Virus record (IMG/VR): IMGVR_UViG_3300022872_000001
Coordinates: 96,001-160,000 of that record
Strand: one strand, 5' to 3'
Length of the DNA: 64,000 nucleotides
Source: a virus
In this document: piece by piece, positions 15,526-40,090 of the stretch
Numbering within the stretch: the stretch's first letter is position 1
Layout: each line of letters opens with the position of its first letter
The notes under the pieces: model-generated
Database searches by the model: none
What the model saw: the letters and a program-made list of their open reading frames with translations, nothing else
Told to the model about the DNA's origin: nothing
Translations under genes and position numbers: made by a program

Positions 15526-17133
15526 ATGGCCGCAACACCCTTATTTTTAGCCACGGACGTAGGCTTAGCTGCTGCAAGTGTTGCAACCCCTACCGGACCG
15601 TTTGTAGAGATTGTAGCCTTCAAAATTGGTTCTGCCTACGGATACAGTCCAAGTCGCAGTGATACAGGCCTTAATGGGGCTACCCTGTACTCAGGGGTTC
15701 CCATCTCCTATCAGAATATTGGAGATAATACGATCAACATTATCCTCCAAATTCCGCCTGAGGCAGGCCCCTTTGATTTTGGTGAGGTAGGTGTTTATCT
15801 GCCTAATGATGTTATGTTTGGTAAGGCAGTATTCGATACCTTGCAGACGAAATTCTCATCATTAGGTACCAATCTTCTATCTACCTATACCTTCAACTGT
15901 TTGATCAAGTTGGAGCAATCGACTGCAATCTTCCAGATTACTACTGCATCTGGAATTCCTCCAGCAATTTGGGATGTGTACGCTTGGTCGGATGTTTATC
16001 CTCCAGGAGTATCCGCTAATCCAGATACCCCTGCAATATTGATACATGAATTGGATGTATTAAATAACTCGACACTGCTGCATAAAGCAAACGATGATAA
16101 ATGGACTTTGGGAACCAACTATGCGCGCTATGGTGAGCGTGCCGTGGTATCAGGTACAACGTCATCCGTGCAATTCGCCCAATCCCAATTCCCTGCGTCC
16201 CCGGTTAATTCGGTAAATAACCAATTCGTTCTGGAGTTTTCGGATGGCTTCTATCGCTCAGTCTCTAGCGTAGTTGTTGCCGGTTCAAATTATCAATTCA
16301 ATCTGAACCCGGCTCCTTTGCTGTCCTTGCCTACAGCAGGCGATATCGTAATGCTGCACAATAACAACGGTTATAGCTTCACTGCATTAACCGATGTGCC
16401 ATTAGCTACTCAAACCATTCAAGGGATTGCTGAGTTCTCGCATGGTTTACAAATAGTTAGTCCTGGGATAATTGCTGTTAATGGTTTGAATCATGACGCA
16501 CCTAACACTGGACGGTTATTAACGAGTTCAGATGACCTTAACACAGCCACACTGGCATCAGGTATATACACGGTAACAGGAGGTCAAGGGTACCCTGGTA
16601 ATTATCCTCCAATCGGTGCCTTACCCGGGGTCATTCACAATTCCAATACTCAGTCGGTATCAGGTAACGGATCGATTGTCCAGACCTGGTACCCCACAGG
16701 TACAGGGGGAGGGGATGGATCAGGTACAGGGGGTCAGCCTGTATATTTCAGAACATTGATTAGCGCAGGTAGTTGGAGTGCGTGGTTTCCTTTCACGATG
16801 CCGGGTAAGGTAGGTACAGGTGGTACTCGAACAGCTATTTTCTCTGGATTGGTTCAAAACTATTCCTATACCAATCCTCATACATCCCCAGGATTTTACT
16901 CATTTGCTATCAGCAGTCTATCCTCATCTGGCGGTAATACCTCAACTAATGCCATTCAGGGAGATTTGTATATAAATGGATTAGGTATTACCTTATTGGA
17001 TGATCATAGTGGCAATGGTTCACACGCTGATACTGTATGCTGCGTGGCGTACCCTGGTGAGAGTATGTACATAAATACGACAACGTACTTTGGATATCCC
17101 TGCTATCTCAACGTTACCGAAACACTTATTTAA
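15526..17133 (+). CDS. baseplate-anchored tail fibre (P2 gpH-like N-terminus, knob-like C-half)
   Basis: ATDVGLAAA...AFKIGSAYGY...GPFDFGEVGVY N-terminal anchor; DLNTATLASGIY...VYFRTLISAGSWSAW knob motif. Confidence 0.8.
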   Translation: MAATPLFLATDVGLAAASVATPTGPFVEIVAFKIGSAYGYSPSRSDTGLNGATLYSGVPISYQNIGDNTINIILQIPPEAGPFDFGEVGVYLPNDVMFGKAVFDTLQTKFSSLGTNLLSTYTFNCLIKLEQSTAIFQITTASGIPPAIWDVYAWSDVYPPGVSANPDTPAILIHELDVLNNSTLLHKANDDKWTLGTNYARYGERAVVSGTTSSVQFAQSQFPASPVNSVNNQFVLEFSDGFYRSVSSVVVAGSNYQFNLNPAPLLSLPTAGDIVMLHNNNGYSFTALTDVPLATQTIQGIAEFSHGLQIVSPGIIAVNGLNHDAPNTGRLLTSSDDLNTATLASGIYTVTGGQGYPGNYPPIGALPGVIHNSNTQSVSGNGSIVQTWYPTGTGGGDGSGTGGQPVYFRTLISAGSWSAWFPFTMPGKVGTGGTRTAIFSGLVQNYSYTNPHTSPGFYSFAISSLSSSGGNTSTNAIQGDLYINGLGITLLDDHSGNGSHADTVCCVAYPGESMYINTTTYFGYPCYLNVTETLI

Positions 17134-17142
17134 GGAACAGTA

Positions 17143-17730
17143 ATGACAGATCAATCAACTGAGGTAACGTCGGAAGTTACAACACCGAAGTATTTTCGGT
17201 ATAAGTACAATGCATTTTTTGTATTCACGGCAGCTATGGAAGCTACCGATAATACCACGGTAGTTGAGGGTACTTCGTTATGGGCTCCATATCCTGCTGC
17301 TACTGGTATGGATTCCTATTTCACAGGACACGGCTGGATTCAACTCAAGGCTTTTAGTCTCCTAACCGATGAAGTGTTCCTGTCGGCTAATACAGCATTG
17401 GCTGAATTGGATTTACAGAAAGGATTGGCAACCCTACAAGGTGCATATCCTGATGTTGAGGTGTCTACGTGGCCACGTCAAGAAGCAGATGCCATAGCCT
17501 ACCTAGCGGGTAGTCCGGCAACGGCATTCCTTTCTACTCTGGCTGCTTCAACCGGAGAGACAGTAGTTACCCTAGCTCCTAAGATTGTAGCTAAGGCTAA
17601 TGCCTACAACACACAATACGCAAACCTCTTGGGTGTCTACAAGACTGCTATTACCAACGTTACCGTTAGTGATACTTTGAAACAAAAGGTTCTCGGTAAT
17701 ATCCAATACCTACGCCATTTATTCAATTGA
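17143..17730 (+). CDS. tail fibre assembly chaperone
   Basis: YPDVEVSTWPRQEADA..Y...LSTLAASTGETVVTLAPKIVAKANAY is typical of Tfa-like chaperones. Follows the fibre gene. Confidence 0.75.
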   Translation: MTDQSTEVTSEVTTPKYFRYKYNAFFVFTAAMEATDNTTVVEGTSLWAPYPAATGMDSYFTGHGWIQLKAFSLLTDEVFLSANTALAELDLQKGLATLQGAYPDVEVSTWPRQEADAIAYLAGSPATAFLSTLAASTGETVVTLAPKIVAKANAYNTQYANLLGVYKTAITNVTVSDTLKQKVLGNIQYLRHLFN

Positions 17731-17732
17731 TC

Positions 17733-18251
17733 ATGAAACATAAACTCCAAGCCTCTATCGAGTATCCGGCAATCTGGGACGCCGAGCGTGGTATGTATGT
17801 ATGGGCTATTCCAGATAGTAAATCTATGTTATCCCTAACAGGGCTATTGGCTAACGCGCCTTTCAAAACTAAGGACGGTACGGAGTTACACTGCACTATC
17901 CTGCATTGTAAACCAGGAACTACTCTTCCGGACTATCGATCAATCACACTTCCTGAGGATAAACCTCGGTACGGTTCTGTAGTTGGCGTTCTCCATTGGA
18001 TCGATCACAAGCAACGCGATATCTTTGTATTTGATATTAAGTCAGATGACTTAAGCGAGGTTCATGATCAATTGGTATCCGTAGGTTTTCAACACTCGCA
18101 TCCTGACTTCAATCCTCATATGTCCATAGGCAAAGAACTGGAATTAGATACAGCACAGCGTATTTGGTTTAAAACCATGAATGAGAAATTGAATAACACT
18201 CCTATTGAAATTACTTTCAATTCAGAGTTATACGCAACTTCCTTAGAGTAG
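17733..18251 (+). CDS. acb1: 2H phosphoesterase, T4 57B/Acb1-like (candidate anti-CBASS nuclease)
   Basis: Two HxT/S motifs (LHCTIL and FNPHMSIG). The spacing and W...VFDIKSDDL..VH..L..VG..H...FNPH segment parallel T4 57B. Confidence 0.65.
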   Translation: MKHKLQASIEYPAIWDAERGMYVWAIPDSKSMLSLTGLLANAPFKTKDGTELHCTILHCKPGTTLPDYRSITLPEDKPRYGSVVGVLHWIDHKQRDIFVFDIKSDDLSEVHDQLVSVGFQHSHPDFNPHMSIGKELELDTAQRIWFKTMNEKLNNTPIEITFNSELYATSLE

Positions 18252-18330: not shown

Positions 18331-19251
18331 TTAGGCATATGTACCTTCATCCAGGGACAATTCTGGAATGTCTGCTGCAACCAAAGCACGGAAGGTTGGA
18401 TCAGCAGCCGAGCCACTACCTGGACCGGCAAACACAGTGTTAGCTGTTTGTGTAGCCAAGGAAACGGCCAGGGTTCCTGAAGTAGTGATTGGCGAACCAG
18501 TCACAGACAAGAACGATGGCACCGACATCGCCACCGAAGTAACCGAGCCAGTTCCCAGACCTGAAATCAACGCTTCAACTTGACCCAGATTGGTAGCTTC
18601 ACCGCTGGTAGTAGCAGTCGCAACAGTAAGTGGAACGCTGAAGGTAGTTGCACCTGCAACAGTACCACCTGTGGTCAGATCCAAGGCGTTGACATCACTG
18701 GAGGTCAGAACAACGGCACCAACCTGACCATTAACGCTTGACACCGCATTTTGAGCTTGCAAGCGCTCGTATGCTGTACCGTCCGACAGGACCCAGTCAC
18801 CAACTGCCAGTGTCAGACCTTGTTGGGTACCTGCTGCTGAAACAACCCAGTAGTTACCCTTGTTGGTAGTAGCTGCTGGCAAGGCCGGCGTATTGGTTGC
18901 GGCATTGTAAGTACCTTGGTAATCTAGTGCACCCAAAACAGCAGGTGGCAGATTACTTGTGGAGATCAAACCATTGACATCCAACGGAGCAACACCGTAG
19001 GTACCAATATCAGCAGCACCCAGAGTAATCGAGGTACCTGTCTTGCTGTTAATCGATTGAACCGCAGTACCTGCAGCAACTACAGCAGCAGCCGATGCGA
19101 TGGTATCAATAGCACCTGTACTGTCTTGGATAAAAATCTTCTTATCCGCAGTATTGATTGCAATCTGACCAACGCCCAATTGCAGAGCTGTTGGAACTGC
19201 ACCAGGTACAGCAGACCGCATGTGAATGAGTTTATTGCTAGTTAATGCCAT
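18331..19251 (-). CDS. fibre protein with T4 gp37-like N-terminal docking domain and gp36-like C-terminal DEGTY motif
   Basis: MRSAVPGAVPTALQLGVGQIAINTADKKIFIQD; SVNGQVGAVVL repeats; ends LDEGTYA. Confidence 0.75.
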   Translation of the reverse strand: MALTSNKLIHMRSAVPGAVPTALQLGVGQIAINTADKKIFIQDSTGAIDTIASAAAVVAAGTAVQSINSKTGTSITLGAADIGTYGVAPLDVNGLISTSNLPPAVLGALDYQGTYNAATNTPALPAATTNKGNYWVVSAAGTQQGLTLAVGDWVLSDGTAYERLQAQNAVSSVNGQVGAVVLTSSDVNALDLTTGGTVAGATTFSVPLTVATATTSGEATNLGQVEALISGLGTGSVTSVAMSVPSFLSVTGSPITTSGTLAVSLATQTANTVFAGPGSGSAADPTFRALVAADIPELSLDEGTYA

Positions 19252-19280
19252 AATGATGCTCCTAAATTAAGAAAAAGAAA

Positions 19281-19610
19281 TTAGGCATAAGTGCCTTCAT
19301 CCGTGAACCCACCTACTACTTGCCATGCTCCGTCACTACGCACATAGCCATTACCATCTATCGGAGCTTCCGGAATACCACCACCTGACGTATCTGCAAC
19401 CCAGGTAACAAGATCCGATTGAAGTACATACGTTATTCCCGTATCTACCGCCCGTGCCGCCATACCTGCCTCTAATCGCAAAGGTGATATGGAGGCTAAT
19501 TCAGATTGAGATGCAACAGATATCCAACCACCCTTCCCGTATTCAGCATGGTGCGTCGGGAATGATCCATTATTTATGGGTACAAGATCACTAATAATTT
19601 CAATAGACAT
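19281..19610 (-). CDS. short fibre adaptor with fibritin-foldon-like motif and C-terminal DEGTY
   Basis: GGIPEAPIDGNGYVRSDGAW versus the T4 foldon [20 protein letters not shown]. Ends FTDEGTYA. Confidence 0.75.
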   Translation of the reverse strand: MSIEIISDLVPINNGSFPTHHAEYGKGGWISVASQSELASISPLRLEAGMAARAVDTGITYVLQSDLVTWVADTSGGGIPEAPIDGNGYVRSDGAWQVVGGFTDEGTYA

Positions 19611-19619
19611 GATCGCCTC

Positions 19620-20318
19620 TTATGCGTCCGTTACGGTTACATCTATCGCCCCCAACCCAGCATTATCAGATTCATACACATAGTAATTAAATGTTCCTTG
19701 TGGCGTAATTACGGGAACATCACCCTTGAGTACAAAGCCTCCAGTAAATCCATTAACTGCAAAATTGGATAAACCAAAGCTGTCTGGATAGCAGTAATAA
19801 ACCTTTTGACCATTCCCGGCTGTGGCAGAGAAGGAACGGTTCTTCACTCCCTGAACTGCGGTCAATGAGAGAACGAAGGCACTGTTATAAACTGAGGGAG
19901 GAGTCGCAGATCCATAATAGAAAGATTCAGCATAAAGATCATTCTGAACCTTCACTGTATAAATCTGAATTCGTGCCCTGTTGCTTGTGGTATTGGCCAA
20001 TACAAAACTAGCCAACGTCGAATCATATACAAGCATTTTGCTGATATTGATAACTACAAAATTACCATTTGCATCCGTGCCATTTAGAGTCAATGGCTCA
20101 CTTGTGGTAATAACCAAAGTGTTAATGGTTTCATTTGGATTCGAATGATATATACCATTAGCAATTAAATCTACGCTCTCTTTTACCGTAATCGAATTGT
20201 CTGCTACGTAGAGTGAATTCGCAGTTCCCATCGATTGCTGCAATTGATTAACACCTCTGGACACTTCCAGTTTCACACGCATGGAAGCACTGGGATATAC
20301 TGGAGCCGTGATAGCCAT
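19620..20318 (-). CDS. virion structural protein (two beta-sandwich-like modules)
   Basis: C-terminal YYCYPDSFG..FAVNGFTGGF....YYVYESDNAGLG module. Co-located with fibre genes. Confidence 0.6.
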   Translation of the reverse strand: MAITAPVYPSASMRVKLEVSRGVNQLQQSMGTANSLYVADNSITVKESVDLIANGIYHSNPNETINTLVITTSEPLTLNGTDANGNFVVINISKMLVYDSTLASFVLANTTSNRARIQIYTVKVQNDLYAESFYYGSATPPSVYNSAFVLSLTAVQGVKNRSFSATAGNGQKVYYCYPDSFGLSNFAVNGFTGGFVLKGDVPVITPQGTFNYYVYESDNAGLGAIDVTVTDA

Positions 20319-22343: not shown

Positions 22344-23876
22344 TTAGAAATTACGGTTAACGTTTATAGCTAATTGTCCAGATGTTATGGTAGTACCTGA
22401 TACCGTGGTGGTAGATTGATTCGTTATCATGGAACTTATTACCGCTACTGCTGAGGTATTTCTCGATATGCCTGAAGTAGAATTGTAGGGCCATGCTCCG
22501 TTGTACGTCTGGGAGTTTTCATACCAAGGATAGTTAACGGCTGTTCGAACCATGAGTTTGGTATTGTAAAACTCTATAGGTAATCCGAGATTATGGCTAA
22601 ACGTGTATGTCGTACTCGCCGCAAATGTGGTTGGATTAGCTACGCTACTATACTTGCCGTTTAAGGCATAATTAACTACCGAGGAGACCGCGGCGGCTCC
22701 AGTAACCGCTTGCCCTACGTAGGTGCGATTCTTCGCAGTAAACGTTGGATTAGTTCCCGATACGGTAGACGCTGCACTAACCTGGTACATCGTCATTTGA
22801 GGAATACTAAACCAGTCACTCGCATATCCTTGAGTAGCCACATTAGATAAGGTTGTTTGCGGCGTGAATGTTATTCCAGCAGGGTGTTTGCAGTAAGGAA
22901 GGAATTCAAAACCTTGGATTGAGCCAGAGAAAAAGTTGGAAGGTGTAGTTACTGAATTTGCTCCTACACTTATATTGGAAACGGGACAAATGATACTAGT
23001 GCTGGTTATCGTTAAAGCTGAATCAGCTACGCCATTCAGATAGGTGTAATACTTACCTGTTACGGCATCATAGGTGAGCTCTAGGTCATAGGTTGTTCCA
23101 TTAACCAGCGTAGAAGTGCCAACTACCGCATTTGCAATATCCCAAGAAGAACCTGTTGAACTCAGGTAAAGATCTAATTTGCTTGATGATATGTATAACG
23201 TAGCTCCGTATCCTGTAAAATACCCTGCGTTGAATATGGTAGAAGTAGTACCTACCGCGGTTGGTATGAACTTGCAACGCAAAGTCCAACCTGCACTACC
23301 TAAAGTTGTGAATGCAGCAGAGCGTATATAGGAGGTCGTACCGTTAAACACTCCCATGTAAGTACCAGCAATTGCTGGACTGGAGTTACTAAAAGTTACC
23401 GCTGTATTAATCCATGAATTACCAAAGTCATCCAAGTTGGTATTGTTCAATGACAGGCAGGATTGGGCTGCCATATTATACGCATAGCCATACTGCGGTA
23501 ATGCCAACGAGGATCCCCAGGTAACCGAGGTAGCGCTTACCCAATCCTGAGATACAAACGATAGGTTAGTAGCCGGCAAAGTAACTGCGCCTGCAACGTC
23601 CGCACTCAGGGTGGCGATATAGTCCTGAACTCCAGCTGCGAAGGCTGTCTTCATTGGGACCGTGGTCGCCGCCAGATTAAGCGTTAACCCTGTACCTGCA
23701 CTCAACATGTTGGCATAGCCTGAATTATTAACAGCACCATACTGGACTGTCTGTCTAACCTGAGGAGCATTCTGCCCGCTAACCATACCGTTAGCATCAA
23801 ATACTAGTGATGCAGTACCATTAACTAGCAAACTTCCTTGAGTGGAACTCGGTGATAAAGTGACCGTCATTATCAT
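22344..23876 (-). CDS. LamG/concanavalin-like receptor-binding fibre paralogue 5 (core X, tip P)
   Basis: LNNTNLDDFGNSW..GVFNGTTSYI..WTLRC..IQGFEFLPYC. Tip YSSVANPTTFAAS...VNRNF. Confidence 0.75.
   Translation of the reverse strand: MIMTVTLSPSSTQGSLLVNGTASLVFDANGMVSGQNAPQVRQTVQYGAVNNSGYANMLSAGTGLTLNLAATTVPMKTAFAAGVQDYIATLSADVAGAVTLPATNLSFVSQDWVSATSVTWGSSLALPQYGYAYNMAAQSCLSLNNTNLDDFGNSWINTAVTFSNSSPAIAGTYMGVFNGTTSYIRSAAFTTLGSAGWTLRCKFIPTAVGTTSTIFNAGYFTGYGATLYISSSKLDLYLSSTGSSWDIANAVVGTSTLVNGTTYDLELTYDAVTGKYYTYLNGVADSALTITSTSIICPVSNISVGANSVTTPSNFFSGSIQGFEFLPYCKHPAGITFTPQTTLSNVATQGYASDWFSIPQMTMYQVSAASTVSGTNPTFTAKNRTYVGQAVTGAAAVSSVVNYALNGKYSSVANPTTFAASTTYTFSHNLGLPIEFYNTKLMVRTAVNYPWYENSQTYNGAWPYNSTSGISRNTSAVAVISSMITNQSTTTVSGTTITSGQLAINVNRNF
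22411..22562. repeat. 152-bp identical direct repeat, copy 1 (copy 2 at 23965-24116)
   Basis: Base-by-base identity read by eye between the 3' ends of LamG paralogues 5 and 4. Confidence 0.9.
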
Positions 23877-23891
23877 TACTCCCTGTGATTC

Positions 23892-25484
23892 CTAAAAATT
23901 ACGGTTGACTATGAAAGCAAATTGACCAGACGTACCGTTAGCGGTACTCGGGCTTAGGGATGTTGTAGATTGATTCGTTATCATGGAACTTATTACCGCT
24001 ACTGCTGAGGTATTTCTCGATATGCCTGAAGTAGAATTGTAGGGCCATGCTCCGTTGTACGTCTGGGAGTTTTCATACCAAGGATAGTTAACGGCTGTTC
24101 GAACCATGAGTTTGGTGTTGTAGCACTCTATAGGGACACCAAGATTGTGATTGTTGGAATATGTCGTGGACGCCGCAAATGTAGTTGGATTAGCAACGCT
24201 GCTATACGTACCATTGTAAGCATAACTGGTAAGACCTGTGAGGCTGCCAGTTCCTGTAGTCGCCTCGGCTACATAAACACGGTTCTTTGCTGTAAAGGTA
24301 GGATTCACTCCAGCAGCTACTGATGCTCCACTAATCTGGTACATGGTCATCAATGGAATCGAGAAGAAATCCGAAGCGTAGCCAGGTGTGCCTATGTTAG
24401 GGGCTTGTGTAGGAACCGCATATCCTACCCCATTGGGATTTTGGCAATAGGGCAGATACTCAAACTTATCTATGTAACCTGTAAAGAAGTAATTGGTGCT
24501 TTGAACTGTACCTCCTCCAATTTGCACCTTATTGAATCCCGACGCTACCTTGGACGCAGAGGTTGTAGAGGCTTCCTGAACACCGTTGACATATAAACGA
24601 TAAATTCCTGCCACTATGTCGTAGGTAAGTTCTACAAAATACCAGGTGCTAATTGTAGGTGTGGTTACTCCCTGAACGTTACTTGCTATATCCGCAGATG
24701 TTCCTGTAGAAGACAGATTGTAACTAAACTTGAGTGTTCCACTTATGTTTGAGAGGCACAGGGAAGCGCCGTATCCTGAACTAGTGGTAGCGGTAACAAT
24801 GGGAGTCGCATTACCAGACGTAGGCAACACTGTTGAGTACACCCAGGCTCTTAAAGACCATCCGGCCGGACCTAAGGTGGTGAATGAAGTGCTTGATATA
24901 TAATCACTGGAACCGTTTAAGGCATTAGAAGTACCTGCCCCACCTAAGGCTCCTGTACCAAACTTAAACTGGTTCGTCTGAACCTTAGCTCCACCATTAG
25001 CTATCCATGTATTTCCAAAATCATCTAGGAATGTAGTAGAACCTGAGGAACCTCCAAACTGGAGAACAGATTGGTTATTTTGTTGATAGCTATATCCGTA
25101 TTGAGGTTGAGCAAGGGTTGATGACCAAGTAACTGAGGTATTATTCACCCAGTCTTGGGTTACGTAAGACAAATTGTTTGCAGGAAGGGTTACGACGTTT
25201 TTTGTGTCTGCACTCAAGGTTGATACGTAGTCCCGTAGTCCTGCTGCAAAATTCGTCCGCATAGGAGTGGAGGTAGCTAGTAGACTTAAAGCCAAACCAG
25301 TTCCTACTACAAGAGGATTGGCGTACCCTAAGTTACTTGTTACTCCACTCTGCACCGTCTGCCGTAGCAAGGGTGCATTTAGTCCATTAACCACGCCATT
25401 GGCATCGAATACAACGGAATCAACTCCGTTAACCTGCACGCTGCCTTGCGTGCCATTAGGTTTGGCATATACTGCAAGGGTCAT
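23892..25484 (-). CDS. LamG-like receptor-binding fibre paralogue 4 (core Y, tip P)
   Basis: VLQFGGSSGSTTFLDDFGNTW..GAKVQTNQFKFGTGALGG..LNGSSDYI. Tip shared with paralogue 5. Confidence 0.75.
   Translation of the reverse strand: MTLAVYAKPNGTQGSVQVNGVDSVVFDANGVVNGLNAPLLRQTVQSGVTSNLGYANPLVVGTGLALSLLATSTPMRTNFAAGLRDYVSTLSADTKNVVTLPANNLSYVTQDWVNNTSVTWSSTLAQPQYGYSYQQNNQSVLQFGGSSGSTTFLDDFGNTWIANGGAKVQTNQFKFGTGALGGAGTSNALNGSSDYISSTSFTTLGPAGWSLRAWVYSTVLPTSGNATPIVTATTSSGYGASLCLSNISGTLKFSYNLSSTGTSADIASNVQGVTTPTISTWYFVELTYDIVAGIYRLYVNGVQEASTTSASKVASGFNKVQIGGGTVQSTNYFFTGYIDKFEYLPYCQNPNGVGYAVPTQAPNIGTPGYASDFFSIPLMTMYQISGASVAAGVNPTFTAKNRVYVAEATTGTGSLTGLTSYAYNGTYSSVANPTTFAASTTYSNNHNLGVPIECYNTKLMVRTAVNYPWYENSQTYNGAWPYNSTSGISRNTSAVAVISSMITNQSTTSLSPSTANGTSGQFAFIVNRNF
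23965..24116. repeat. 152-bp identical direct repeat, copy 2
   Basis: Identical to 22411-22562. Confidence 0.9.
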
Positions 25485-26110
25485 GGTAAGTACTCCTTAA
25501 TTGTAATGCGTGATGACATAAGTCCTCCTAACAGCAAGGAACCTCCGCTCCCATTAAGGTACGTTGTTCCTGCGGCTGTAGACCCGGCCCTAACTTTGAA
25601 TGTGGTTGCAGTAATTGTCCCTGCTACCATTAAATGTTTAAACGCAAGTTCGGTAATATTCCCTGAGGTGTAGTAACTCATACCACCTGCTAATCCATTG
25701 GCATTCGCATCTTGAAACAAGGCAGCAACGAAGGAAGCACTACCTAAGGATGAATTAGACAGGAATAACGCAACATCAATCTCTAATGTCGAACTAGCAT
25801 TCGTAGGCGTTATGGCTTGAGATAAAAATTGAATACCTGACGTATTTTGAGGAACCCCTGAACTAGCAAAGGTGGTTGTTCCCGTTTGCAAAGTTCCTAC
25901 CGTAGTGCTTACTACTTGAGCAATTAGGTTGGCACCTACAATTTTCATAGCGCCTGACGCAGGTACGGTAAAAATATCTTGAGTGGTTGAACCGTAATTA
26001 CCTCTCGATAACTTCATCGTCCCGTTTGCGGCAGCACTGGCAAGAACAAAATTCTGTGAGGCAGTTACGCTATCCCCGAGTTGAACCTGTGTTATGGTTG
26101 CACCTGCCAT
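25481..26110 (-). CDS. short fibre/lectin-like paralogue B (209 aa)
   Basis: MAGATITQVQLGDSVTASQNFVL...AITPTNASSTLEI...ITIKEYLP. Paralogue of 26125-26754. Confidence 0.75.
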   Translation of the reverse strand: MAGATITQVQLGDSVTASQNFVLASAAANGTMKLSRGNYGSTTQDIFTVPASGAMKIVGANLIAQVVSTTVGTLQTGTTTFASSGVPQNTSGIQFLSQAITPTNASSTLEIDVALFLSNSSLGSASFVAALFQDANANGLAGGMSYYTSGNITELAFKHLMVAGTITATTFKVRAGSTAAGTTYLNGSGGSLLLGGLMSSRITIKEYLP

Positions 26111-26124
26111 TAAAATTCCTTAGG

Positions 26125-26754
26125 TTACGGTAAATACTCCCGAATTATCATACTGGACATAGGCGCAGTCCCACCGAATAAAACAGCTCCACTGGCGCCA
26201 TTGAATGAGGTAGTACCTGCGGCATTACCACCCGCATTAACAGTAAAGGTCAGTGCACTGGTTGTACCTGCTACCATCCAATATTTTAAGGCTAATTGAA
26301 CTGCACCACTCGTACTTGCTTGATACTCGGCTGCGGCTGTCAGTGCATTCGAATTACCTGATACAAACAAAGCTGCACTTATGTGATTCGCCGCAGTATT
26401 CGATAAAAGCAGATAGCATTCAATCTCCAAGATTGAGGACGCATTGGTTGGAGTAATTGCCAACGACATATATTGATTACCTGTAGATGTCGTAGGTAAG
26501 GCTGCTATAGGCATTGTTGTTGTACCTGTAGCCTGCGCACTATATGCCTGACGCACAGCCTGTGCCATTAGGTTAGCACCTACAATCTTGGCTGTGCCTG
26601 ATACCGGAACGGTAATTATATCCTGTGTGGTAGCTCCAAAATTACCACGTGATAACTTCATCGTTCCGTCAGCCGAAGCGCTGGTAAGCACAAAATTCTG
26701 TGATGCGGTTACGCTGTCACCAAGTTGTAATTGGGTAATTGTTGTCCCAGCCAT
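26125..26754 (-). CDS. short fibre/lectin-like paralogue A (209 aa)
   Basis: MAGTTITQLQLGDSVTASQNFVL...AITPTNASSILEI...IIREYLP. Confidence 0.75.
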   Translation of the reverse strand: MAGTTITQLQLGDSVTASQNFVLTSASADGTMKLSRGNFGATTQDIITVPVSGTAKIVGANLMAQAVRQAYSAQATGTTTMPIAALPTTSTGNQYMSLAITPTNASSILEIECYLLLSNTAANHISAALFVSGNSNALTAAAEYQASTSGAVQLALKYWMVAGTTSALTFTVNAGGNAAGTTSFNGASGAVLFGGTAPMSSMIIREYLP

Positions 26755-26798
26755 TAGAAGCTCCTTCGTGTTTTGATTCTAAAAAATCCTGAGGTGAT
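26752..26798. repeat. 47-bp identical repeat spanning the stop/start junction (other copy 28284-28330)
   Basis: cattagaagctccttcgtgttttgattctaaaaaatcctgaggtgat occurs at both sites. Confidence 0.85.
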
Positions 26799-28286
26799 GG
26801 CAGCATTTGCCGTACTGTACCCTACGTTGGTAGCGAAACCTACCGAGCTTGAATTACGTGTTGATACTCCACCGTAGTATCCATAGTTTGCAAAGGCTGA
26901 TTGCGTCGCTATACGCTCATTGGTTCCATTTATATCGTCAGCTAATGTGGAATCCATATTCCACATAGTCGTGCCTAAATTATGCGATTTGGCATATACT
27001 GTACTAGCTGCTACCGCAAATAATCCAGAGTCATACCTGCCATTTAAGGCATAATTCACTACACTTGAAATTGCACTTGACGAAGTTACAGCTTCACCTA
27101 TGTAAACACGGTTCTTTGCAGTAAAGGTTGGAGTAGTACCCGCTCCTGTTGAAGCTCCTGACACCTGGTACATAGTCATTTGAGGAATACTAAAGAAATC
27201 TGCTGCATATCCTTGAGTAGCGACGTTTGGTGCGGCTGTAGGCACTGTATATGTGGTACCTGCAGGATGTTGGCAATAAGGGAGGTATTCAAACTTATCT
27301 ATGTAACCTGAGAAAAAGTTGCCTACAGTAGTAGCACTTCCTATTGACCATACGGGAACTGGACAAATCTTGGAGGAACTGGTAACCGTATAATCAAGCA
27401 CTCCATTTAAATATCCAAAATATTTTCCAGCCACAGGATCATAGGTAATTTCGATGAAGTTCCAAGTACCTGCGGTAAGTGTGGCAGTACCTGTACCTGC
27501 ACTTGCGATATCCCAACTAGTTGCGGTACTAGATAGGTAGTAACTCATCTTACTGGAAGCGATACCTACTGCGGCTCCATAGCCTGACGCTGATTGACCT
27601 GCCATTAAAATAGTTTGAAATGTGGCACTAGATACAGCTACAGGATTAAACCAACACCGCAGGGACCAACCACCCTGTCCTAAGGACGTAAAACTACTGG
27701 AACTTATATAGTCGCTAGAACCATTTAAAACATTGCTGGTACCTGCTCCCCCTAAAGCACCTGTACCGAATTTGAAAGAAGTAGTTTGAACTTTCGCACT
27801 TCCATGGGCAGTCCATGTATTCCCAAAATCATCTAGGAAAGTGGTGCTCCCTGCTGAACCCCCGAACTGAAGAACCGATTGTTGATTCTGAATATAGCTG
27901 TAACCATACTGAGGCTGAGCAAGGGTCGATGACCAAGTAACCGCACTAGGATTTACATAATCCTGACTAATGAAGGAAGTATTGCTCGCAGGAAGGGTTA
28001 CGACGCTCGCTACATCTGAAGTTAAAGTCGCTATGTAATCCTTAACTCCCAATGCAAACGCGGTCCTAACTGGAACAGTAGTAGCTGCCAGATTTATGGC
28101 TAGTCCTGTACCTGCACTTAGCATATTGGCATAGCCTGAACTATTGGTAGCGCCTGTTTGCACAGCCTGGCGTGCTCCCAAAACCATACCTGTTGTTATA
28201 CCGCCTACATTAAAAGACACGGAGTTCACACCGTTGGCTTGCAGACCTCCACCTCCTCCCGGATTCGATCCTACTAAAATGCTCAT
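26754..28286 (-). CDS. LamG-like receptor-binding fibre paralogue 3 (core Y, tip Q)
   Basis: Core as in paralogue 4. Tip YDSGLFAVAASTVYAKSHNLG...IKTRRSF. Confidence 0.75.
   Translation of the reverse strand: MSILVGSNPGGGGGLQANGVNSVSFNVGGITTGMVLGARQAVQTGATNSSGYANMLSAGTGLAINLAATTVPVRTAFALGVKDYIATLTSDVASVVTLPASNTSFISQDYVNPSAVTWSSTLAQPQYGYSYIQNQQSVLQFGGSAGSTTFLDDFGNTWTAHGSAKVQTTSFKFGTGALGGAGTSNVLNGSSDYISSSSFTSLGQGGWSLRCWFNPVAVSSATFQTILMAGQSASGYGAAVGIASSKMSYYLSSTATSWDIASAGTGTATLTAGTWNFIEITYDPVAGKYFGYLNGVLDYTVTSSSKICPVPVWSIGSATTVGNFFSGYIDKFEYLPYCQHPAGTTYTVPTAAPNVATQGYAADFFSIPQMTMYQVSGASTGAGTTPTFTAKNRVYIGEAVTSSSAISSVVNYALNGRYDSGLFAVAASTVYAKSHNLGTTMWNMDSTLADDINGTNERIATQSAFANYGYYGGVSTRNSSSVGFATNVGYSTANAAITSGFFRIKTRRSF
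26994..27050. repeat. 57-bp identical repeat (other copy 28526-28582)
   Basis: Encodes ALNGRYDSGLFAVAASTVY in paralogues 2 and 3 with no synonymous differences. Confidence 0.85.
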
Positions 28287-29836
28287 TAGAAGCTCCTTCG
28301 TGTTTTGATTCTAAAAAATCCTGAGGTGATAGCTGCGCTTGCAGTACTTACACCTACGTTGGTAGAGAATCCTAAACTAAATTGATTGCGAGATGCTGTA
28401 GCTCCATAATATCCATAGCTGCTACCTGAAATCTGAGTAGGGACCCGTTCATTGGTTCCACTAACATCATCAGCAATTGTAGGATCAATTGTGTACTGCA
28501 CTGTTCCTATATTATGTGTCTTGCTATATACTGTACTAGCTGCTACCGCAAATAATCCAGAGTCATACCTGCCATTTAAGGCGTAATTCACAACCGACGA
28601 TATGCCTGTAACACCTGCCGTTGTTTCTCCCACATAAACACGGTTCTTTGCTGTAAAGGTTGGATTAGTTCCTGATACACCAGACGCGCTTGATACTTGG
28701 TACATAGTCATCAATGGAATGCTAAACCAGTCACTGGCGTATCCCTGAGTAGCTACGTTAGGAGCTTGAGTTGGTACTGCGTAACCTACTCCGTTAGGAT
28801 GTTGGCAATAAGGCAGATACTCAAACTTATCTATGTAACCTGTAAAGAATCCCGCAGGTGTTGTACCGCCCTGTGCACCAACACATAAGGACGTGATAGG
28901 ACATATTACACTTGATGAGGTAGCTGAGGTTAATTGTGTGCCATTGACATAAAGACGATATACTCCTGCTACTGCATCGAATGTAAATTCAACAAAATAC
29001 CAAGTACCAACTACAGGAACCAAAGCCGCGGTAATCCCAGAAGCAATATCCCAGGACGTACCAGTACTGGACGCCCATGCTGAAAATGAATAAGTGCCAG
29101 CATTGTTGTAAACGCCAAATTCTACGCCGTACTTAGCATCATTGCATGCCCCAACTACAGTCGATAAAAATGTAGAAGCAGGAAGAACAGTTGGATTAAC
29201 CCATGCTCTTAAAGACCAACCAGTTTTACCTAGTGAGGTAAAACTGGTGCTCTTCAAATAATCACTGGAACCGTTTAAGGCATTGCTAGTTCCTCCACCA
29301 CCTAAAGCTCCAGTACCAAATTTAACCTGGTTAGTCTGGACTTTAGCTCCGCCTTGTGCTACCCATGTATTTCCAAAGTCATCTAGGAATGTAGTAGAAC
29401 CTGCCGAACCTCCAAATTGAAGGACAGATTGGCTGTTCTGCACATACAAGTATCCATACTGAGGTTGGGCTAGAGTGGAATTCCAGGTAACCGAGGTAGG
29501 GCTAACGTAATCTTGAGATATGAAAGACAAGGCACTAGCAGGCACACTAACCACGCTACTGGTATCGCTACTAAGAGTAGACACGTAATCTTGAACTCCA
29601 GCTGCGAATGCCGTCTTCATTGGGACCGTGGTGGCAGCAAGGTTGAGTGCCAATCCAGAACCTGATGAAAGCATGGAAGCATATCCACCTGTAGTAGAAC
29701 CTGATTGGACGGTTTGTCTAACACCTAACGTAAAACCACTCGTAATTCCTGAGGCATCAAATACTACTGCTGGCGTATCATTCACCTGCAGCGTTCCAGT
29801 TAACCCTGAGGAATCCGCTACTATTGTTGTAATCAT
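28286..29836 (-). CDS. LamG-like receptor-binding fibre paralogue 2 (core Y, tip Q)
   Basis: Same architecture. TAATG overlap on both sides. Confidence 0.75.
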   Translation of the reverse strand: MITTIVADSSGLTGTLQVNDTPAVVFDASGITSGFTLGVRQTVQSGSTTGGYASMLSSGSGLALNLAATTVPMKTAFAAGVQDYVSTLSSDTSSVVSVPASALSFISQDYVSPTSVTWNSTLAQPQYGYLYVQNSQSVLQFGGSAGSTTFLDDFGNTWVAQGGAKVQTNQVKFGTGALGGGGTSNALNGSSDYLKSTSFTSLGKTGWSLRAWVNPTVLPASTFLSTVVGACNDAKYGVEFGVYNNAGTYSFSAWASSTGTSWDIASGITAALVPVVGTWYFVEFTFDAVAGVYRLYVNGTQLTSATSSSVICPITSLCVGAQGGTTPAGFFTGYIDKFEYLPYCQHPNGVGYAVPTQAPNVATQGYASDWFSIPLMTMYQVSSASGVSGTNPTFTAKNRVYVGETTAGVTGISSVVNYALNGRYDSGLFAVAASTVYSKTHNIGTVQYTIDPTIADDVSGTNERVPTQISGSSYGYYGATASRNQFSLGFSTNVGVSTASAAITSGFFRIKTRRSF

Positions 29837-31350: not shown

Positions 31351-33006
31351 TTAGACGATTACCCAACGCGAACCTGTAGGTATAGTAACGGTTATTCCAT
31401 TTGCTACCGCAATAGGTCCAGCCGATACCGCGTTTTTATTAGTTGTTATGGCGTAGCTTATGCTCACGGTTTCTGCATTCTCGTAGAACACGTCACTGCC
31501 TGTCCCACCACTGGCTCCACCTGTACCTGAAGGAGTTACCCATGCAAGAGATGTACCATTCCAAGTCAACGCTGTACCAGCAGTAGTTGGTGCGGTAACA
31601 AAACCGGTAACACCCGTTCCTGTTTGGTAGTTCACCTGATTAGCTGCACCACCTGCGACCGCAGTAGCTAATGCCGCAGTTCCTCCAATACTCAAACTAG
31701 CGGCTGTGCCGGTCGCATTGGTTAATACAACGGCAGACGGCGTACCTAGATTAGGTGTGGTCAAACTTGGTGATGTATTAAGAACAACAGAACCTGTACC
31801 TGTTGACGTAGTTGTTCCTGTACCACCATTGGCTACAGCTAGAGTGCCCCCAAGGGTTATGGTACCTGATCCAGTAATAGGACCGCCTGTGGTAGTTAAA
31901 CCTGTAGTACCTCCGGACACTGCAACCGAGGTAACGCTACCTGTACCTTCCGCAACCCATGCAAATGCTGAACCACTCCAAGACAACAACGTATTTGCTG
32001 TACCCGGTGCAGGAACAAAACCTGTTACACCTGCACCCGTTTGGTAATTGATTTGATTTGCGGTTCCACCAGCCACGGATGTAGCTAAAGCGGCTGTTCC
32101 TCCAATACTCAAGCTACCTGCGGTACCTGTTAAACCTGTACCTGCCCCTGTGAAACTTCCACCAGTTATCAAACCAGAAGCAGCAGCAGTGGTAAGTGAA
32201 ACTAAGGAAGTAATGTCTGAGTTAGCACCGGATGCTGCCGCACCCAGGCTAGTACGCGCACCTGCCGAAGTTGTTGCATTCGTACCCCCATTAGCCAATG
32301 GTAAAACGCCAGTCACACCTGTGGTGAGCGGTAAACCTGTGGCATTGGTAAGTGTAGCTGCGGAAGGAACACCTAGATTCGGAGTGGTTAAAGATGGGGA
32401 GGTACTGAGCACCACAGAACCTGTACCTGTAGATGTCGTAGTACCTGTACCACCATTAGCAACTGCCAGCGTACCGCTAAGCGTAATAGTTCCTGCACCT
32501 GTGATAGGTCCACCTGATGTGGTCAAACCTGTGGTACCCCCAGATACAGCAACGGAAGTTACGGTACCTGAACCTGAAGGAGATGTCCAAACAAAGGCTG
32601 TACCATTCCATGTAAGTATTGTATTGGAAGAACTTGGTGCAGCTATGAAACCTGTAGTACCTGAACCTGTTTGGTAATTTATCTCGTTGGCAGCACCTCC
32701 AGCAATAGCTGCTGCTGTGCCTCCTACATTCAAGCTACCTGCAGTACCTGTCAAGCCCGTTCCGGCACCCGTAAAACTGCCAGCAGTAATAGTGCCAGAC
32801 GCAGTTGCGGATACCAAAGAAGCCAATGATGTGATGTCGGTATTGGCACCAGGTTTGGCACCTATCTGTTTAACCGATCCACTATGATCTTTGGAAAACA
32901 GAATTTGATCAGCTAAGTTGACTGCCAATTGACCTTCTGCCAGCTGACCTGCTGTAGGCACAGTCCCCGAGGTATTTGATCTTAAGTTCTGTATGATGTT
33001 AGCCAT
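31351..33006 (-). CDS. repetitive fibre shaft with gp37-like N-terminal docking domain and C-terminal hub motif
   Basis: LRSNTSGTVPTAGQLAEGQLAVNLADQILFSKD. 3x GGxANxINYQTG..TGF..AP..LxWxG and 2x VTSVAVSGGTTGLTT..GPIT repeats. Ends DVFYEN..YAITTNKNAVSAGPI..GSRWVIV. Confidence 0.8.
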   Translation of the reverse strand: MANIIQNLRSNTSGTVPTAGQLAEGQLAVNLADQILFSKDHSGSVKQIGAKPGANTDITSLASLVSATASGTITAGSFTGAGTGLTGTAGSLNVGGTAAAIAGGAANEINYQTGSGTTGFIAAPSSSNTILTWNGTAFVWTSPSGSGTVTSVAVSGGTTGLTTSGGPITGAGTITLSGTLAVANGGTGTTTSTGTGSVVLSTSPSLTTPNLGVPSAATLTNATGLPLTTGVTGVLPLANGGTNATTSAGARTSLGAAASGANSDITSLVSLTTAAASGLITGGSFTGAGTGLTGTAGSLSIGGTAALATSVAGGTANQINYQTGAGVTGFVPAPGTANTLLSWSGSAFAWVAEGTGSVTSVAVSGGTTGLTTTGGPITGSGTITLGGTLAVANGGTGTTTSTGTGSVVLNTSPSLTTPNLGTPSAVVLTNATGTAASLSIGGTAALATAVAGGAANQVNYQTGTGVTGFVTAPTTAGTALTWNGTSLAWVTPSGTGGASGGTGSDVFYENAETVSISYAITTNKNAVSAGPIAVANGITVTIPTGSRWVIV

Positions 33007-33046: not shown

Positions 33047-33556
33047 CTACGAGTAGGTACCTGAATCCAATTCAAGATCCTGAACGTCAAACTGGATGTT
33101 GCCTGCCGTGGTAGTTACTCCAATACCGTTACCACCTGTCAATGCCACGACTCCAGTTTGTGCATTTAAGGCTGAAACTCCTGCCCCAGGAGAACTAGAA
33201 ATAATTTGTACTCCATAAACAGCAGTACCTACCGTCAAGACAGAACCTGACTGTAATACACCGTTCTTAAAAACGATATTATCAGATGGTAGAGTTACAG
33301 GAGTAATTACACCGTAGTACACAGCCAAGTCGTATCCCCGTATGATCGCTCGGGATACCTCAATCTCAGGTAAGGCAAACCGCCAACTATTTCCGTCATA
33401 TACATACAGGCCGGGAGAACGTGCTCCCTCTGTTTGGGATAATATTACTGCCTCACTTGCTGACGCACTAAGAACAGATAAGGACGTAACAGCAGGAGCA
33501 TTAAAGGGACCTGAAAAACCATTTTGATAAATGGTTAACGGAAAGGAGAATGACAT
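33047..33556 (-). CDS. fibre adaptor ending in gp36-like DSGTY motif
   Basis: ALNAQTGVVALT repeat. Ends LELDSGTYS. Immediately upstream of a gp37-like gene. Confidence 0.65.
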   Translation of the reverse strand: MSFSFPLTIYQNGFSGPFNAPAVTSLSVLSASASEAVILSQTEGARSPGLYVYDGNSWRFALPEIEVSRAIIRGYDLAVYYGVITPVTLPSDNIVFKNGVLQSGSVLTVGTAVYGVQIISSSPGAGVSALNAQTGVVALTGGNGIGVTTTAGNIQFDVQDLELDSGTYS

Positions 33557-40033: not shown

Positions 40034-40090
40034 CTGGAAATGCTCCTTGTTGTGAATTTCATACGTACACATTAAATTAGAAGAGTGCTA

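Follow-up and report, generated by a model that had tools for sequence, protein, structure and literature searches.

The closest described counterpart of the fibre proteins reported here is the joint between gp36 and gp37 of phage T4, where a gp36 trimer attaches to gp37 near its N-terminus (PMC3004832). The two genes occur in the same order as those described below, with gp36 ending in a D-x-G-x-Y sequence (SVQDFGYY) and gp37 beginning with the domain of interest. We refer to such a C-terminal motif as a plug and to a gp37-type N-terminal domain as a socket. In T4, gp36 has no socket and is held by gp35, and therefore T4 lacks a linking protein that carries both ends.

Two related phages encode such proteins. 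Achromobacter phage Motura gp151 (YP_009903836, annotated as 'minor tail protein') and Burkholderia phage BcepSaruman gp273 ('hypothetical protein') are orthologues of the 306-aa protein that is the main subject of this report. A distant relationship between Motura and the Lu11/PaBG group has been reported. Lu11 is among the hairy Myoviridae (phAPEC6, CBB, Y3, Lu11 and Dickeya JA/AD1), which are jumbo phages bearing thin flexible filaments whose proteins were not identified in the studies cited here (PMC7247149, PMC6143709).

Plug and socket genes of the contig

The window analysed is a stretch of 64,000 nucleotides from a 192-kb contig, which is an uncultured virus record with a completeness of 82% according to CheckV. 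The relevant features of the window are as follows.

18331..19251, minus strand: 306-aa protein with both ends (the candidate link); starts MALTSNKLIHMRSAVPGAVPTALQLGVGQIAINTADKKIF, ends SLDEGTYA
18334..18354, minus strand: plug of the link, L-D-E-G-T-Y-A-stop
18364..18558, minus strand: fibre module of the link just before the plug, residues 232-296, GTVTSV...GSPITTSGT...FAGP...PTFRAL
18757..18939, minus strand: central beta-rich domain of the link, about residues 105-165, YQGTYNA...GDWVLSDGTAYERL; matches PHROG 31460 'tail protein' (E 1.8e-16)
19096..19230, minus strand: socket of the link, residues 8-52, gp37-type N-terminal domain (HMM E 8e-23)
19281..19610, minus strand: 109-aa candidate anchor or 'primer', with a conserved N-terminal part, a fibritin/foldon-like stretch and a plug; ends FTDEGTYA
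19284..19304, minus strand: plug at the C-terminus of the 109-aa protein, T-D-E-G-T-Y-A-stop
19317..19403, minus strand: foldon-like stretch of the 109-aa protein, residues 70-98, GGIPEAPIDGNGYVRSDGAWQVV; weak Pfam Fibritin_C and tblastn matches
19620..20318, minus strand: 232-aa protein encoded 5′ of the 109-aa gene; ends VTVTDA, without a plug
31351..33006, minus strand: 551-aa fibre with a socket only; starts MANIIQNLRSNTSGTVPTAGQLAEGQLAVNLADQILFSKD; socket at 32857-32994 (HMM E 4e-23)
33047..33556, minus strand: 169-aa candidate second anchor; plug L-D-S-G-T-Y-S at 33050-33070

Exactly three ORFs in the contig, those for the 109-, 306- and 169-aa proteins, have a D-x-G-T-Y-[A/S] C-terminus, and exactly two (306 and 551 aa) begin with a T4 gp37-type domain. 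These counts come from a regular-expression search of the 1115 ORFs of at least 40 aa, and a six-frame search with a socket HMM recovered the same two sockets, the next match having an E value of 1.3. Because the contig is approximately 82% complete, this census may miss genes. Each socket gene lies 3′ of a plug gene, with a gap of 29 nt between the 109- and 306-aa genes and of 40 nt between the 169- and 551-aa genes. Given about 216 real genes, both sockets would directly follow one of the three plug genes by chance about once in 10^4.

A preceding sequence-only reading of this DNA had reported these ORFs and motifs, the placement of a plug gene upstream of a socket gene at both sites, and the resemblance to the gp36 C-terminus and the gp37 N-terminus of T4, and all of this is borne out. 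It had also singled out the 306-aa protein as the only one with both ends. By both searches this is true within the contig, but it is false in general, since proteins of this kind are common elsewhere, including in Motura and BcepSaruman, and we reject the broader claim of uniqueness.

Plug genes precede socket genes in many phages

Among relatives and 80 IMG/VR loci, 14 of 20 socket genes are preceded by a gene whose product ends in [D/N/S]-x-G-x-[Y/F/I], compared with a background of 42 plug-type endings among 3477 ORFs (1.2%) in fibre-rich loci. The plug is always at the extreme C-terminus of the upstream protein. The arrangement occurs in named myo-, sipho- and podophages, with upstream proteins ending in LDFGTF (Acinetobacter PhT2), QDFGLY (Shewanella Thanatos-1), MDGGVF (Colwellia 9A), VVGGTF (cyanosiphophage PSS2), and TIDGGAY and TIDGGSY (podophage Vibrio 172P1), and it is likewise present in BcepSaruman. 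The rule is not absolute, as no plug gene lies upstream of the socket genes in loci L007 and L071, in Synechococcus S-8S53 and in Vibrio vspsw1.

In some natural single-chain proteins, a T-I-D-G-x-x sequence adjoins an internal socket. The only internal socket among the fetched loci is that of PSS2 gp086, and better examples of fusion came from the search of representative proteins, where '...TNKTIDGED' or '...YIDGNEP' stands right before the internal socket (P0121, P0122, P0123 and P0163). A full-text literature search for the motif strings returned nothing relevant.

Homology and predicted structure of the socket

A tblastn search with residues 1-53 of the 306-aa protein matched 243 phage records, most of them annotated as 'long tail fiber distal subunit'. 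Identity to the same domain in gp37 N-termini is 46-51% over 37 residues (E 1e-4 to 6e-3), and the pattern R-S-x3-G-x2-P...G-[E/Q]-[L/I]-A-[I/V]-N-x2-D is shared with the T4 protein. The socket also matches PHROG 19966 and 1699 (E 3e-3 for the 306-aa protein) as well as PHROG 29752. On these comparisons, the socket is a homologue of the domain with which T4 gp37 begins. The match begins at residue 5-9 in both the 306- and 551-aa proteins, and the family is large, with 21,592 representative clusters at E<=1e-3; in almost every one of the top 150, the match falls within residues 1-50. The plug-bearing proteins differ from T4 in this respect, as their bodies are not gp36 homologues; none of the 109-, 169- and 306-aa proteins matches the Pfam Phage_T4_gp36 family over its body at E<=0.1, and the terminal D-x-G-x-Y motif is all that they have in common with gp36. 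They are not members of the gp36 family, but by analogy would act as gp36 does at the joint.

An AlphaFold2 monomer model of the 306-aa protein has pLDDT values of 83-89 over residues 11-55 and above 90 in the central domain. Foldseek and VIA searches with this model gave no match with E<=1e-3 or Z>=5, and the best structural match of the central domain, to the N-terminal part of Geobacillus virus E2 ORF18, is weak (Z 4.7). A search by sequence for a solved structure of the socket or the joint found none, and structural matches to the socket all have Z below 4; among these, a likeness of residues 5-63 to the collagen XV/XVIII trimerisation domain (Z 3.7-3.8) was judged too weak to use. Otherwise, comparison by sequence with solved structures gave only weak repeat matches, to the monocin protein FtbO (9j1l) and to the chain 8vbx described below. 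A prediction for three copies of link residues 1-66 together with three copies of link residues 232-306 scored 0.78, and a control with the socket chain replaced scored 0.77; the value reflects the partner's own trimer and counts neither for nor against docking.

Conservation of the 306-aa protein

Both ends of the 306-aa protein are kept in 19 orthologues of 46-67% identity. In the plug, D301, E302 and G303 are invariant, as are H10, S13, P20, G28, Q29, I30, N33, D36, F40 and I41 of the socket. The central domain recurs in tail-fibre and minor-tail proteins of many phages and was the only part matched when other jumbo phages were searched by tblastn. The GTVTSV/FAGP module is found in hundreds of proteins at 60-80% identity and is duplicated in Motura gp151. 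That protein, which is 43-45% identical to the 306-aa protein, and BcepSaruman gp273 share with it the socket, the central YQG...GDW domain, one or more GTVTSV/FAGP modules and the LDEGTY plug. The phages themselves are related, with major capsid protein identities of 59% to Motura and 69% to BcepSaruman.

Candidate anchors and the 551-aa fibre

Five orthologues of the 109-aa protein all retain D104, G106, Y108 and A109 of the plug region, and residues 70-98 resemble the foldon of T4 fibritin (wac), with matches that fall below threshold: the Pfam Fibritin_C (PF07921) profile reaches 15.9 bits where the curated cut-off is 21 (E 0.015), and with tblastn about 400 records match consistently but weakly, at E 4e-3 to 2e-2, near the C-terminus of a T4-like fibritin. 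A similar stretch stands ahead of the plug in BcepSaruman gp274 and in a 183-aa protein of locus L006, and a trimerising unit just before a joint makes sense. The 109-aa protein is short and has no long coiled coil, and it runs on into a plug, which is absent from fibritin. T4 also differs from the window in that the chain here would have either a foldon-like stub or a separate anchor domain as its base. The AlphaFold2 model of the 109-aa protein is of low confidence (mean pLDDT 57), and a search for longer relatives that could place its attachment site found none.

The 232-aa protein encoded just upstream has no Pfam, PHROG or Atlas family, the Atlas search having given unnamed viral clusters only. 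Its N-terminal half aligns with 183- and 184-aa plug-bearing anchors of relatives, in which the homologues end in VTDEGTI and VTDEGII, respectively; the Motura homologue ends in QMNEGQYS. The N-terminal domain of the 169-aa protein is common to a 911-aa protein of Motura, BcepSaruman gp274 and a 172-aa protein of locus L111.

The 551-aa protein comprises Gly/Thr/Ala-rich repeats and a C-terminal end domain ('...GSRWVIV'). It matches PHROG 19966 'long tail fiber distal subunit' (E 1.8e-8), and its repeat part is weakly similar to a chain of known structure, 'Tail fiber (gp47)' (8vbx, E 0.0015). We regard it as a candidate distal cap for both the link plug and the 169-aa plug.

Proteins with both ends act as middle links elsewhere

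Several phages encode a protein with both ends that sits between an anchor and one or two distal fibres carrying only a socket. Examples are Motura gp151 (216-aa anchor ending in NEGQYS, then gp151, then gp152 and gp153), BcepSaruman gp273 (gp274, gp273, gp272), Vibrio 172P1 gp20 and proteins of loci L004-L006 and L074, with two such sets in L006. This position suggests that the default role of a protein with both ends is that of a middle or extension link and not of a self-polymer, which the sequence-only reading had put forward as a possibility.

The window has the upstream part of this three-part chain, as the 109-aa plug gene (TDEGTYA) lies 29 nt before the link gene. The downstream part is not present, there being no distal gene with only a socket directly 3′ of the link gene. 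In Motura and BcepSaruman the link gene is directly followed by one or two such genes and the anchors carry N-E-G plugs, whereas in the clade of the window the link gene ends its operon, a separate 109-aa foldon anchor ends in D-E-G-T-Y-A, and the link gene shows a much stronger codon bias. Five independent contigs (the window, L003, L108, L109 and L110) have no distal gene after the link gene, and this leaves one plug unpaired; in at least two genomes of the clade, plugs outnumber sockets by one.

Fibres with only a socket do occur in this clade. In the window, the 551-aa gene lies 12 kb upstream of the link gene and behind its own 169-aa anchor gene, and the layout of L110 is the same. In L111, an anchor (LTEGTY), a 152-aa fibre with only a socket and the link adjoin one another, and L108 encodes a 301-aa fibre of this kind with no plug gene ahead. 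On sequence grounds, these arrangements support the joining of the link to a distal fibre.

Where distal genes are present, the plugs of anchors (N-E-G... or T-D-E-G-x-I) are systematically distinct from those of links ([L/I/M]-D-E-G-T-[Y/F]). Sockets likewise fall into two types, GQIA[IM]N in links and G[RK]LA.N..DER.YF in distal fibres. In the clade of the window, the plugs of the 109-aa anchor and of the link have one core in common, and both read DEGTYA in the window and in L110.

Codon use of the link gene

The sequence-only reading had described the codon use of the 306-aa gene as resembling that of abundant proteins, and this can now be put in figures. The gene ranks second of 216 for synonymous codon use like that of capsid, sheath and tube genes (z about +3), and is the most capsid-like of all non-reference genes in this genome. 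On the same scale the 109-aa gene ranks 191, the 169-aa gene 180 and the 551-aa gene 76. Scored against their own reference genes, the Motura link gene ranks 10 of 252 and that of BcepSaruman 85 of 313, both above every anchor and distal fibre scored in their chains, with the Motura ranks for the 216-aa anchor, gp152 and gp153 coming from a slightly different ORF set than that for gp151. With the weights of this genome, the link gene is top of its locus in seven of eight metagenomic relatives. Codon use so far above that of the anchor and the cap suggests a large stoichiometric excess of the link.

A proposed fibre architecture and its alternatives

The explanation that we favour, and consider reasonably probable, is a modular joint of the gp36/gp37 type combined with an extension link that is abundant and on which the 551-aa fibre probably sits. 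The 109/306-aa and 169/551-aa pairs would be segments of trimeric virion fibres, in which the last six or seven residues of the upstream protein, [L/T]-D-x-G-T-[Y/F]-(A/S), dock onto the socket of about 50 residues at the N-terminus of the next. Such docking is suggested by the analogy to T4 and by the occurrence of the same elements in split and fused gene architectures. The 109-aa protein would be a small fibritin-like trimeric stub consisting of a virion-binding N-terminus, the foldon-like stretch and the plug. For the 306-aa protein, the likeliest role is that of an extension link of unusual abundance; its predicted order is socket, short helix, small beta domain, common fibre module and plug. 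Most probably its plug carries the 551-aa protein, the only fibre with a socket alone, which could also sit directly on the 169-aa anchor, giving extended and short versions of one receptor-binding fibre. The link appears to be made in clear excess over its partners, making it plausible that there is more than one link per fibre or that there are many attachment sites. The assignment of each plug to a particular socket, the trimeric state and the positions of the anchors on the virion are all putative elements of this proposal.

Some observations fit this architecture poorly. A simple 1:1:1 fibre of three parts leaves the capsid-like codon use of the link gene alone unexplained. The shared DEGTYA core provides no motif cue for the link plug to prefer the 551-aa fibre over its own socket, some socket genes have no upstream plug gene, and a distal fibre gene may be missing from the incomplete contig. 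The first two points fit an alternative in which the link plug would dock on the socket of another link trimer, so that chains of variable length, with or without the 551-aa fibre as a cap, would grow from the 109-aa primer into long thin filaments (hairs or whiskers). Both ends are invariant and lie on one polypeptide, the link plug has no distal socket gene behind it in the five contigs and is in surplus in at least two genomes, and the link gene outranks those of its anchor and cap in codon use. Natural proteins with a covalent tandem of socket, linker and socket suggest that serial stacking is structurally viable, and the hairs of hairy myophages are of undescribed composition (PMC7247149, PMC6143709). 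We nevertheless consider self-polymerisation rather doubtful. Everywhere else, fibres with only a socket come after the protein with both ends, which is enough to explain the plug, and this genome encodes such a fibre. The systematic differences between anchor and link plugs and between link and distal sockets argue for ordered, specific joints, and codon bias measures expression rather than chain length. The proposed tie to hairy phages also found no support: neither sequence nor morphology was seen to connect this uncultured phage with them, and the only ones that a paper on phiMatilda, which is cultured and related to BcepSaruman, describes are 'very short tail fibers'. The earlier interpretation is in part supported. 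It stands in its pairing of genes, gp37 homology, codon use and the singularity of the 306-aa protein within the contig, but not in that singularity beyond the contig or in self-polymerisation as the default role.

It is also conceivable, and we think improbable, that the link is itself the distal receptor-binding end, with the central beta domain binding the host and D-E-G-T-Y-A capping or nucleating the last trimeric module. Its place as the last operon gene in five contigs would fit, as would a central domain that is a widespread fibre module modelled with high confidence. However, the plug is invariant across the 19 orthologues, some of which clearly serve a socket gene downstream, the clusters of L108, L110, L111 and the window also encode fibres with only a socket, and a structural cap would not explain the tight succession of plug and socket genes across phage families. 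Least credible, and in our view very improbable, is that the motifs are incidental to beta-rich fibre proteins and that their adjacency reflects ordinary clustering of fibre genes with no specific joint. Fibre genes do cluster, the motifs are short, and the socket genes that lack an upstream plug are consistent with coincidence. Against this stand the 70% frequency of plugs directly upstream of sockets compared with 1.2% of ORFs, their constant position at the extreme C-terminus, the fused proteins with the motif directly before an internal socket, and the established interaction of T4 gp36 with gp37 (PMC3004832).

If the plug and the gp37-type domain are the two halves of one joint, as in the architecture that we favour, the wiring of fibres could be read from sequence alone, with connections, order and the roles of anchor, link and tip all deducible. 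This would aid annotation and host-range prediction for a family of more than 20,000 protein clusters, mostly annotated as no more than 'hypothetical' or 'tail fiber', and receptor-binding tips could be swapped at a natural splice point. The implied excess of the link raises the question of whether some phage fibres are chains of repeated subunits, which bears on the hairs of jumbo phages. In the fullest form of chain growth, which we again think unlikely, a 109-aa foldon primer would receive link trimers head to tail, each by the same D-E-G-T-Y-A/socket joint, until a 551-aa terminator is added, and the [D/N]-x-G-x-[Y/F]-COOH/gp37-N joint would be a universal wiring code, legible in the sequence, of segmented fibres among myo-, sipho- and podophages. 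The length of a fibre would then depend on expression ratios instead of on one long gene, a new way to build phage filaments of variable length and a candidate basis for hairs.

Sequences flanking the link gene

A promoter search before the link gene found neither a AGTAAATA box nor a sigma-70-like promoter, and the only element seen 5′ of it is a weak 5-bp hairpin with a T-run over the end of the 109-aa gene. The link gene is the last of a minus-strand operon and has an AGGAG ribosome-binding site 7 nt before its ATG. On its 3′ side in the window lies a convergent Acb1-like gene.

Paired plugs and sockets in a late-type operon

The window carries a long late-type operon in which a plug (a C-terminal D-x-G-T-Y-type motif) precedes each socket (an N-terminal domain of about 50 residues of the T4 gp37 type).

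33559-34209 down to 18331, minus strand: the operon, from the endolysin gene to its end
31351-33006, minus strand: 551-aa fibre with a socket start that aligns with the T4 gp37 N-terminus
same operon, minus strand: 169-aa anchor, plug end LDSGTYS
same operon, minus strand: 109-aa anchor, plug end TDEGTYA
18331-19251, minus strand: 306-aa protein (the link), socket start and plug end LDEGTYA
19283-19296, minus strand: 5-bp hairpin and T-run, overlapping the last codons and stop of the 109-aa gene

Three genes of the operon (169, 109 and 306 aa) end in D-x-G-T-Y-[A/S], and both socket genes start 29-40 nt downstream of a plug gene. Across the 192,170-bp contig, an uncultured virus record rated 82% complete, no further plug was found by regular expression among 1115 ORFs and no third socket by HMM search (two at E 4e-23 and 8e-23, the next at E 1.3). 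In the T4 genome, gp36 ends in ...QDFGYY and the gene that follows is gp37, which has a socket-type start. The plug-before-socket arrangement and the T4 analogy of the sequence-only reading are both borne out by these comparisons, and the arrangement is far from chance. The hairpin and T-run lie just ahead of the ribosome-binding site of the link gene and are too weak to be called a terminator.

The closest named relatives of this phage are the jumbo phages BcepSaruman and Motura, whose major capsid proteins are 69% and 59% identical, and a baseplate cluster is present on the plus strand near the plug and socket genes. The socket is a homologue of the gp37 N-terminus: residues 1-53 of the link match 243 phage records by tblastn, mostly annotated as 'long tail fiber distal subunit', and there are also matches to PHROG long-tail-fibre families. 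No plug-bearing protein fits the gp36 family profile, and the likeness of these proteins to T4 gp36 is confined to the joint. Directly ahead of the plug in the 109-aa protein lies a foldon-like stretch, GGIPEAPIDGNGYVRSDGAWQVV, which resembles Pfam Fibritin_C at E 0.015, below the family's cut-off, and, weakly but consistently, about 400 fibritin genes by tblastn. In the link, a confidently modelled socket (pLDDT 83-89) leads into a short helix and a small beta domain (pLDDT above 90), the latter shared with many fibre or minor-tail proteins. A module of the form GTVTSV...FAGP...PTFRAL, which is very common, comes next, and the plug closes the protein.

Generality of the proposed joint

Loci were sampled blind to plugs, using link relatives found by exact protein look-up and 80 IMG/VR loci retrieved through the link's central domain. 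The upstream gene ends in [D/N/S]-x-G-x-[Y/F/I] for 14 of 20 socket genes, against a background of 42 among 3477 ORFs. Named phages of different families show the pattern, including BcepSaruman, Colwellia 9A (MDGGVF), cyanosiphophage PSS2 (VVGGTF) and the podophage Vibrio 172P1, which has two plugs in series (TIDGGAY, then TIDGGSY). In Acinetobacter PhT2 and Shewanella Thanatos-1, the gene ahead of the socket is a gp36 homologue ending in LDFGTF and QDFGLY, respectively. Exceptions are S-8S53, vspsw1 and the metagenomic loci L007 and L071.

When 1.84 billion representative proteins were searched with a socket profile, 21,592 clusters matched, almost always at residues 1-50. In the few proteins with a second, internal socket, the preceding residues (...TNKTIDGED, ...TISGNS, ...YIDGNEP or ...TIDANT) are the plug motif minus its terminal aromatic residue. 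Because the same junction is found both divided between two genes and joined within a single polypeptide, the classic argument is that plug and socket adjoin each other in the assembled fibre. In T4, trimeric gp36 attaches to the N-terminal part of gp37 (PMC3004832); searches by sequence brought up no atomic structure for this joint. Physical docking of plug and socket is a well-supported prediction for these proteins, given the comparative evidence and the T4 precedent.

Among the proteins retrieved (P0176, P0121, P0122, P0123 and P0163 being of note), one of 88 aa is a minimal coupler with little beyond a socket and a TIDGGTY plug. Several are single chains with two sockets separated by a short linker ending in TIDGxx. 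Two giant proteins of 5191 and 4014 aa have 9 and 20 partial socket matches, respectively.

Both-ended proteins, usually middle links

Every one of the 19 orthologues of the 306-aa protein has both ends, with D-E-G and ten socket positions invariant. In L004, L005, L006 (two sets), Motura and BcepSaruman, an anchor with a plug is followed by a both-ended protein and then by one or two fibres that have only a socket and whose C-termini are of the receptor-binding type. The same three-part layout is present in the unrelated phages L074 and Vibrio 172P1, and both-ended proteins are usually middle links. BcepSaruman has three sockets and three plugs. Motura has four sockets and three plugs in a full census, with a 216-aa anchor pairing with gp151 (its link orthologue) and then gp152 or gp153, and a 911-aa anchor pairing with a 409-aa fibre. 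In three-part genomes, anchor plugs read N-E-G... or T-D-E-G-x-I versus [L/I/M]-D-E-G-T-[Y/F] in links, and link sockets read GQIA[IM]N versus G[R/K]LA.N..DER.YF in distal fibres. These differences suggest that the joints are ordered and specific.

The layout is changed in the window, L003, L108, L109 and L110. Here, a 232/234-aa homologue of other clades' anchors, itself devoid of a plug, is followed by a separate 109/115-aa foldon-plus-plug protein, the link and the end of the operon. The anchor and link share the same plug core, with DEGTYA identical in the window and L110. These two also have a second pair, a 169/166-aa anchor and then a socket-only fibre, and plugs exceed sockets by one in each. 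L108 has a 301-aa socket-only fibre with no plug gene ahead of it, and in L111 an anchor, a socket-only fibre and a link lie side by side.

Codon use of the link

Every gene was scored for how near its synonymous choices come to those of the genes for major capsid protein, sheath and tube, all of confirmed identity. Of 216 genes the link comes second, ahead of every gene outside the reference set, at +0.109 per codon (mean -0.083, sd 0.065), confirming the abundant-protein codon use noted qualitatively from the sequence. Both the link and the capsid gene avoid ATA, GTA, TTA and GGA/GGG and favour CTG, GGT, GTT, CCA and TCG. In the same ranking, the 109-aa gene is 191st, the 169-aa gene 180th and the 551-aa gene 76th. 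With their own reference genes, the orthologues rank 10 of 252 in Motura (gp151) and 85 of 313 in BcepSaruman (gp273), above all anchors and distal fibres scored in their chains. For Motura, the 216-aa anchor, gp152 and gp153 were placed within an ORF set that differs slightly from the one used for gp151. In metagenomic relatives scored with the window's weights, the link tops its locus in 7 of 8 and exceeds every partner in 8 of 8. This capsid-like codon use suggests that the phage probably produces more of the link than of its partner proteins, which would fit more than one link per fibre or a large number of attachment sites.

Extension link or self-chaining filament

On balance, we favour the view that the 306-aa protein is an abundant extension link, and the simplest reading of the gene set is that it would extend the socket-only fibre. 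The sequence-only reading had proposed that it could chain to itself from the 109-aa protein, as a possible mechanism for the hairs of hairy jumbo phages. The motif places no bar on one link joining another, which may occur, and the one unpaired plug, the identical plug cores of anchor and link, and the link's codon bias all speak for head-to-tail homopolymerisation. We regard this as a live minority hypothesis that is rather unlikely to be correct. The tie to hairy morphology is unsupported. The phage is uncultured, and the cultured BcepSaruman relative phiMatilda is reported to have very short tail fibres. No protein has been assigned to the hairs of known hairy phages (PMC7247149, PMC6143709). 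Within the limited coverage of the literature searched, we found no account of both-ended links, nor of this C-terminal motif serving generally as partner to gp37-type domains.

Neighbouring genes and motifs

15526-17133, plus strand: 535-aa fibre with a P2-type tail-collar N-terminus, then a 195-aa candidate assembly protein
17727-18251, plus strand: 174-aa match to the anti-CBASS nuclease Acb1 (Pfam PF23474, E 8.8e-10; 2H phosphoesterase)
within 22344-31341, minus strand: five paralogues of about 500-530 aa each, immediately downstream of the 551-aa fibre
37232-40072, minus strand: 946-aa fibre with a P2-type tail-collar N-terminus and a gp37-like C-terminal part
2369, 35602, 40970 and 62194, among others: AGTAAATA sites, 10 in all
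G000:C1:161148-163484 and window 63053-64000, both minus strand: large homing-endonuclease-like ORFs between the tube and sheath genes

Identity among the five paralogues is 47-64%; a concanavalin-like Laminin_G_3 domain is present in at least one of them, and two paralogous 209-aa proteins are interspersed with the five. Relatives have Laminin_G_3 proteins of about 920 aa and 200-aa proteins in this neighbourhood. No genes of the genome are less capsid-like in codon use than these, and they may form an array of alternative receptor-binding proteins. Both P2-type fibres have clear Motura orthologues, and the phage therefore has at least four fibre systems. The Acb1-like gene and the link gene converge at their ends; L108 and L109 have the same neighbour, and L005 also has an Acb1 gene near its link.

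The motif AGTAAATA is enriched in the window (10 sites, 3.7 expected; no shuffle reached 10), and none of these sites lies ahead of the link gene. The homing-endonuclease-like ORFs, including one of 778 aa that matches PHROG 3339 (E 7e-79), fall at the end of the codon-use axis opposite to the capsid gene.
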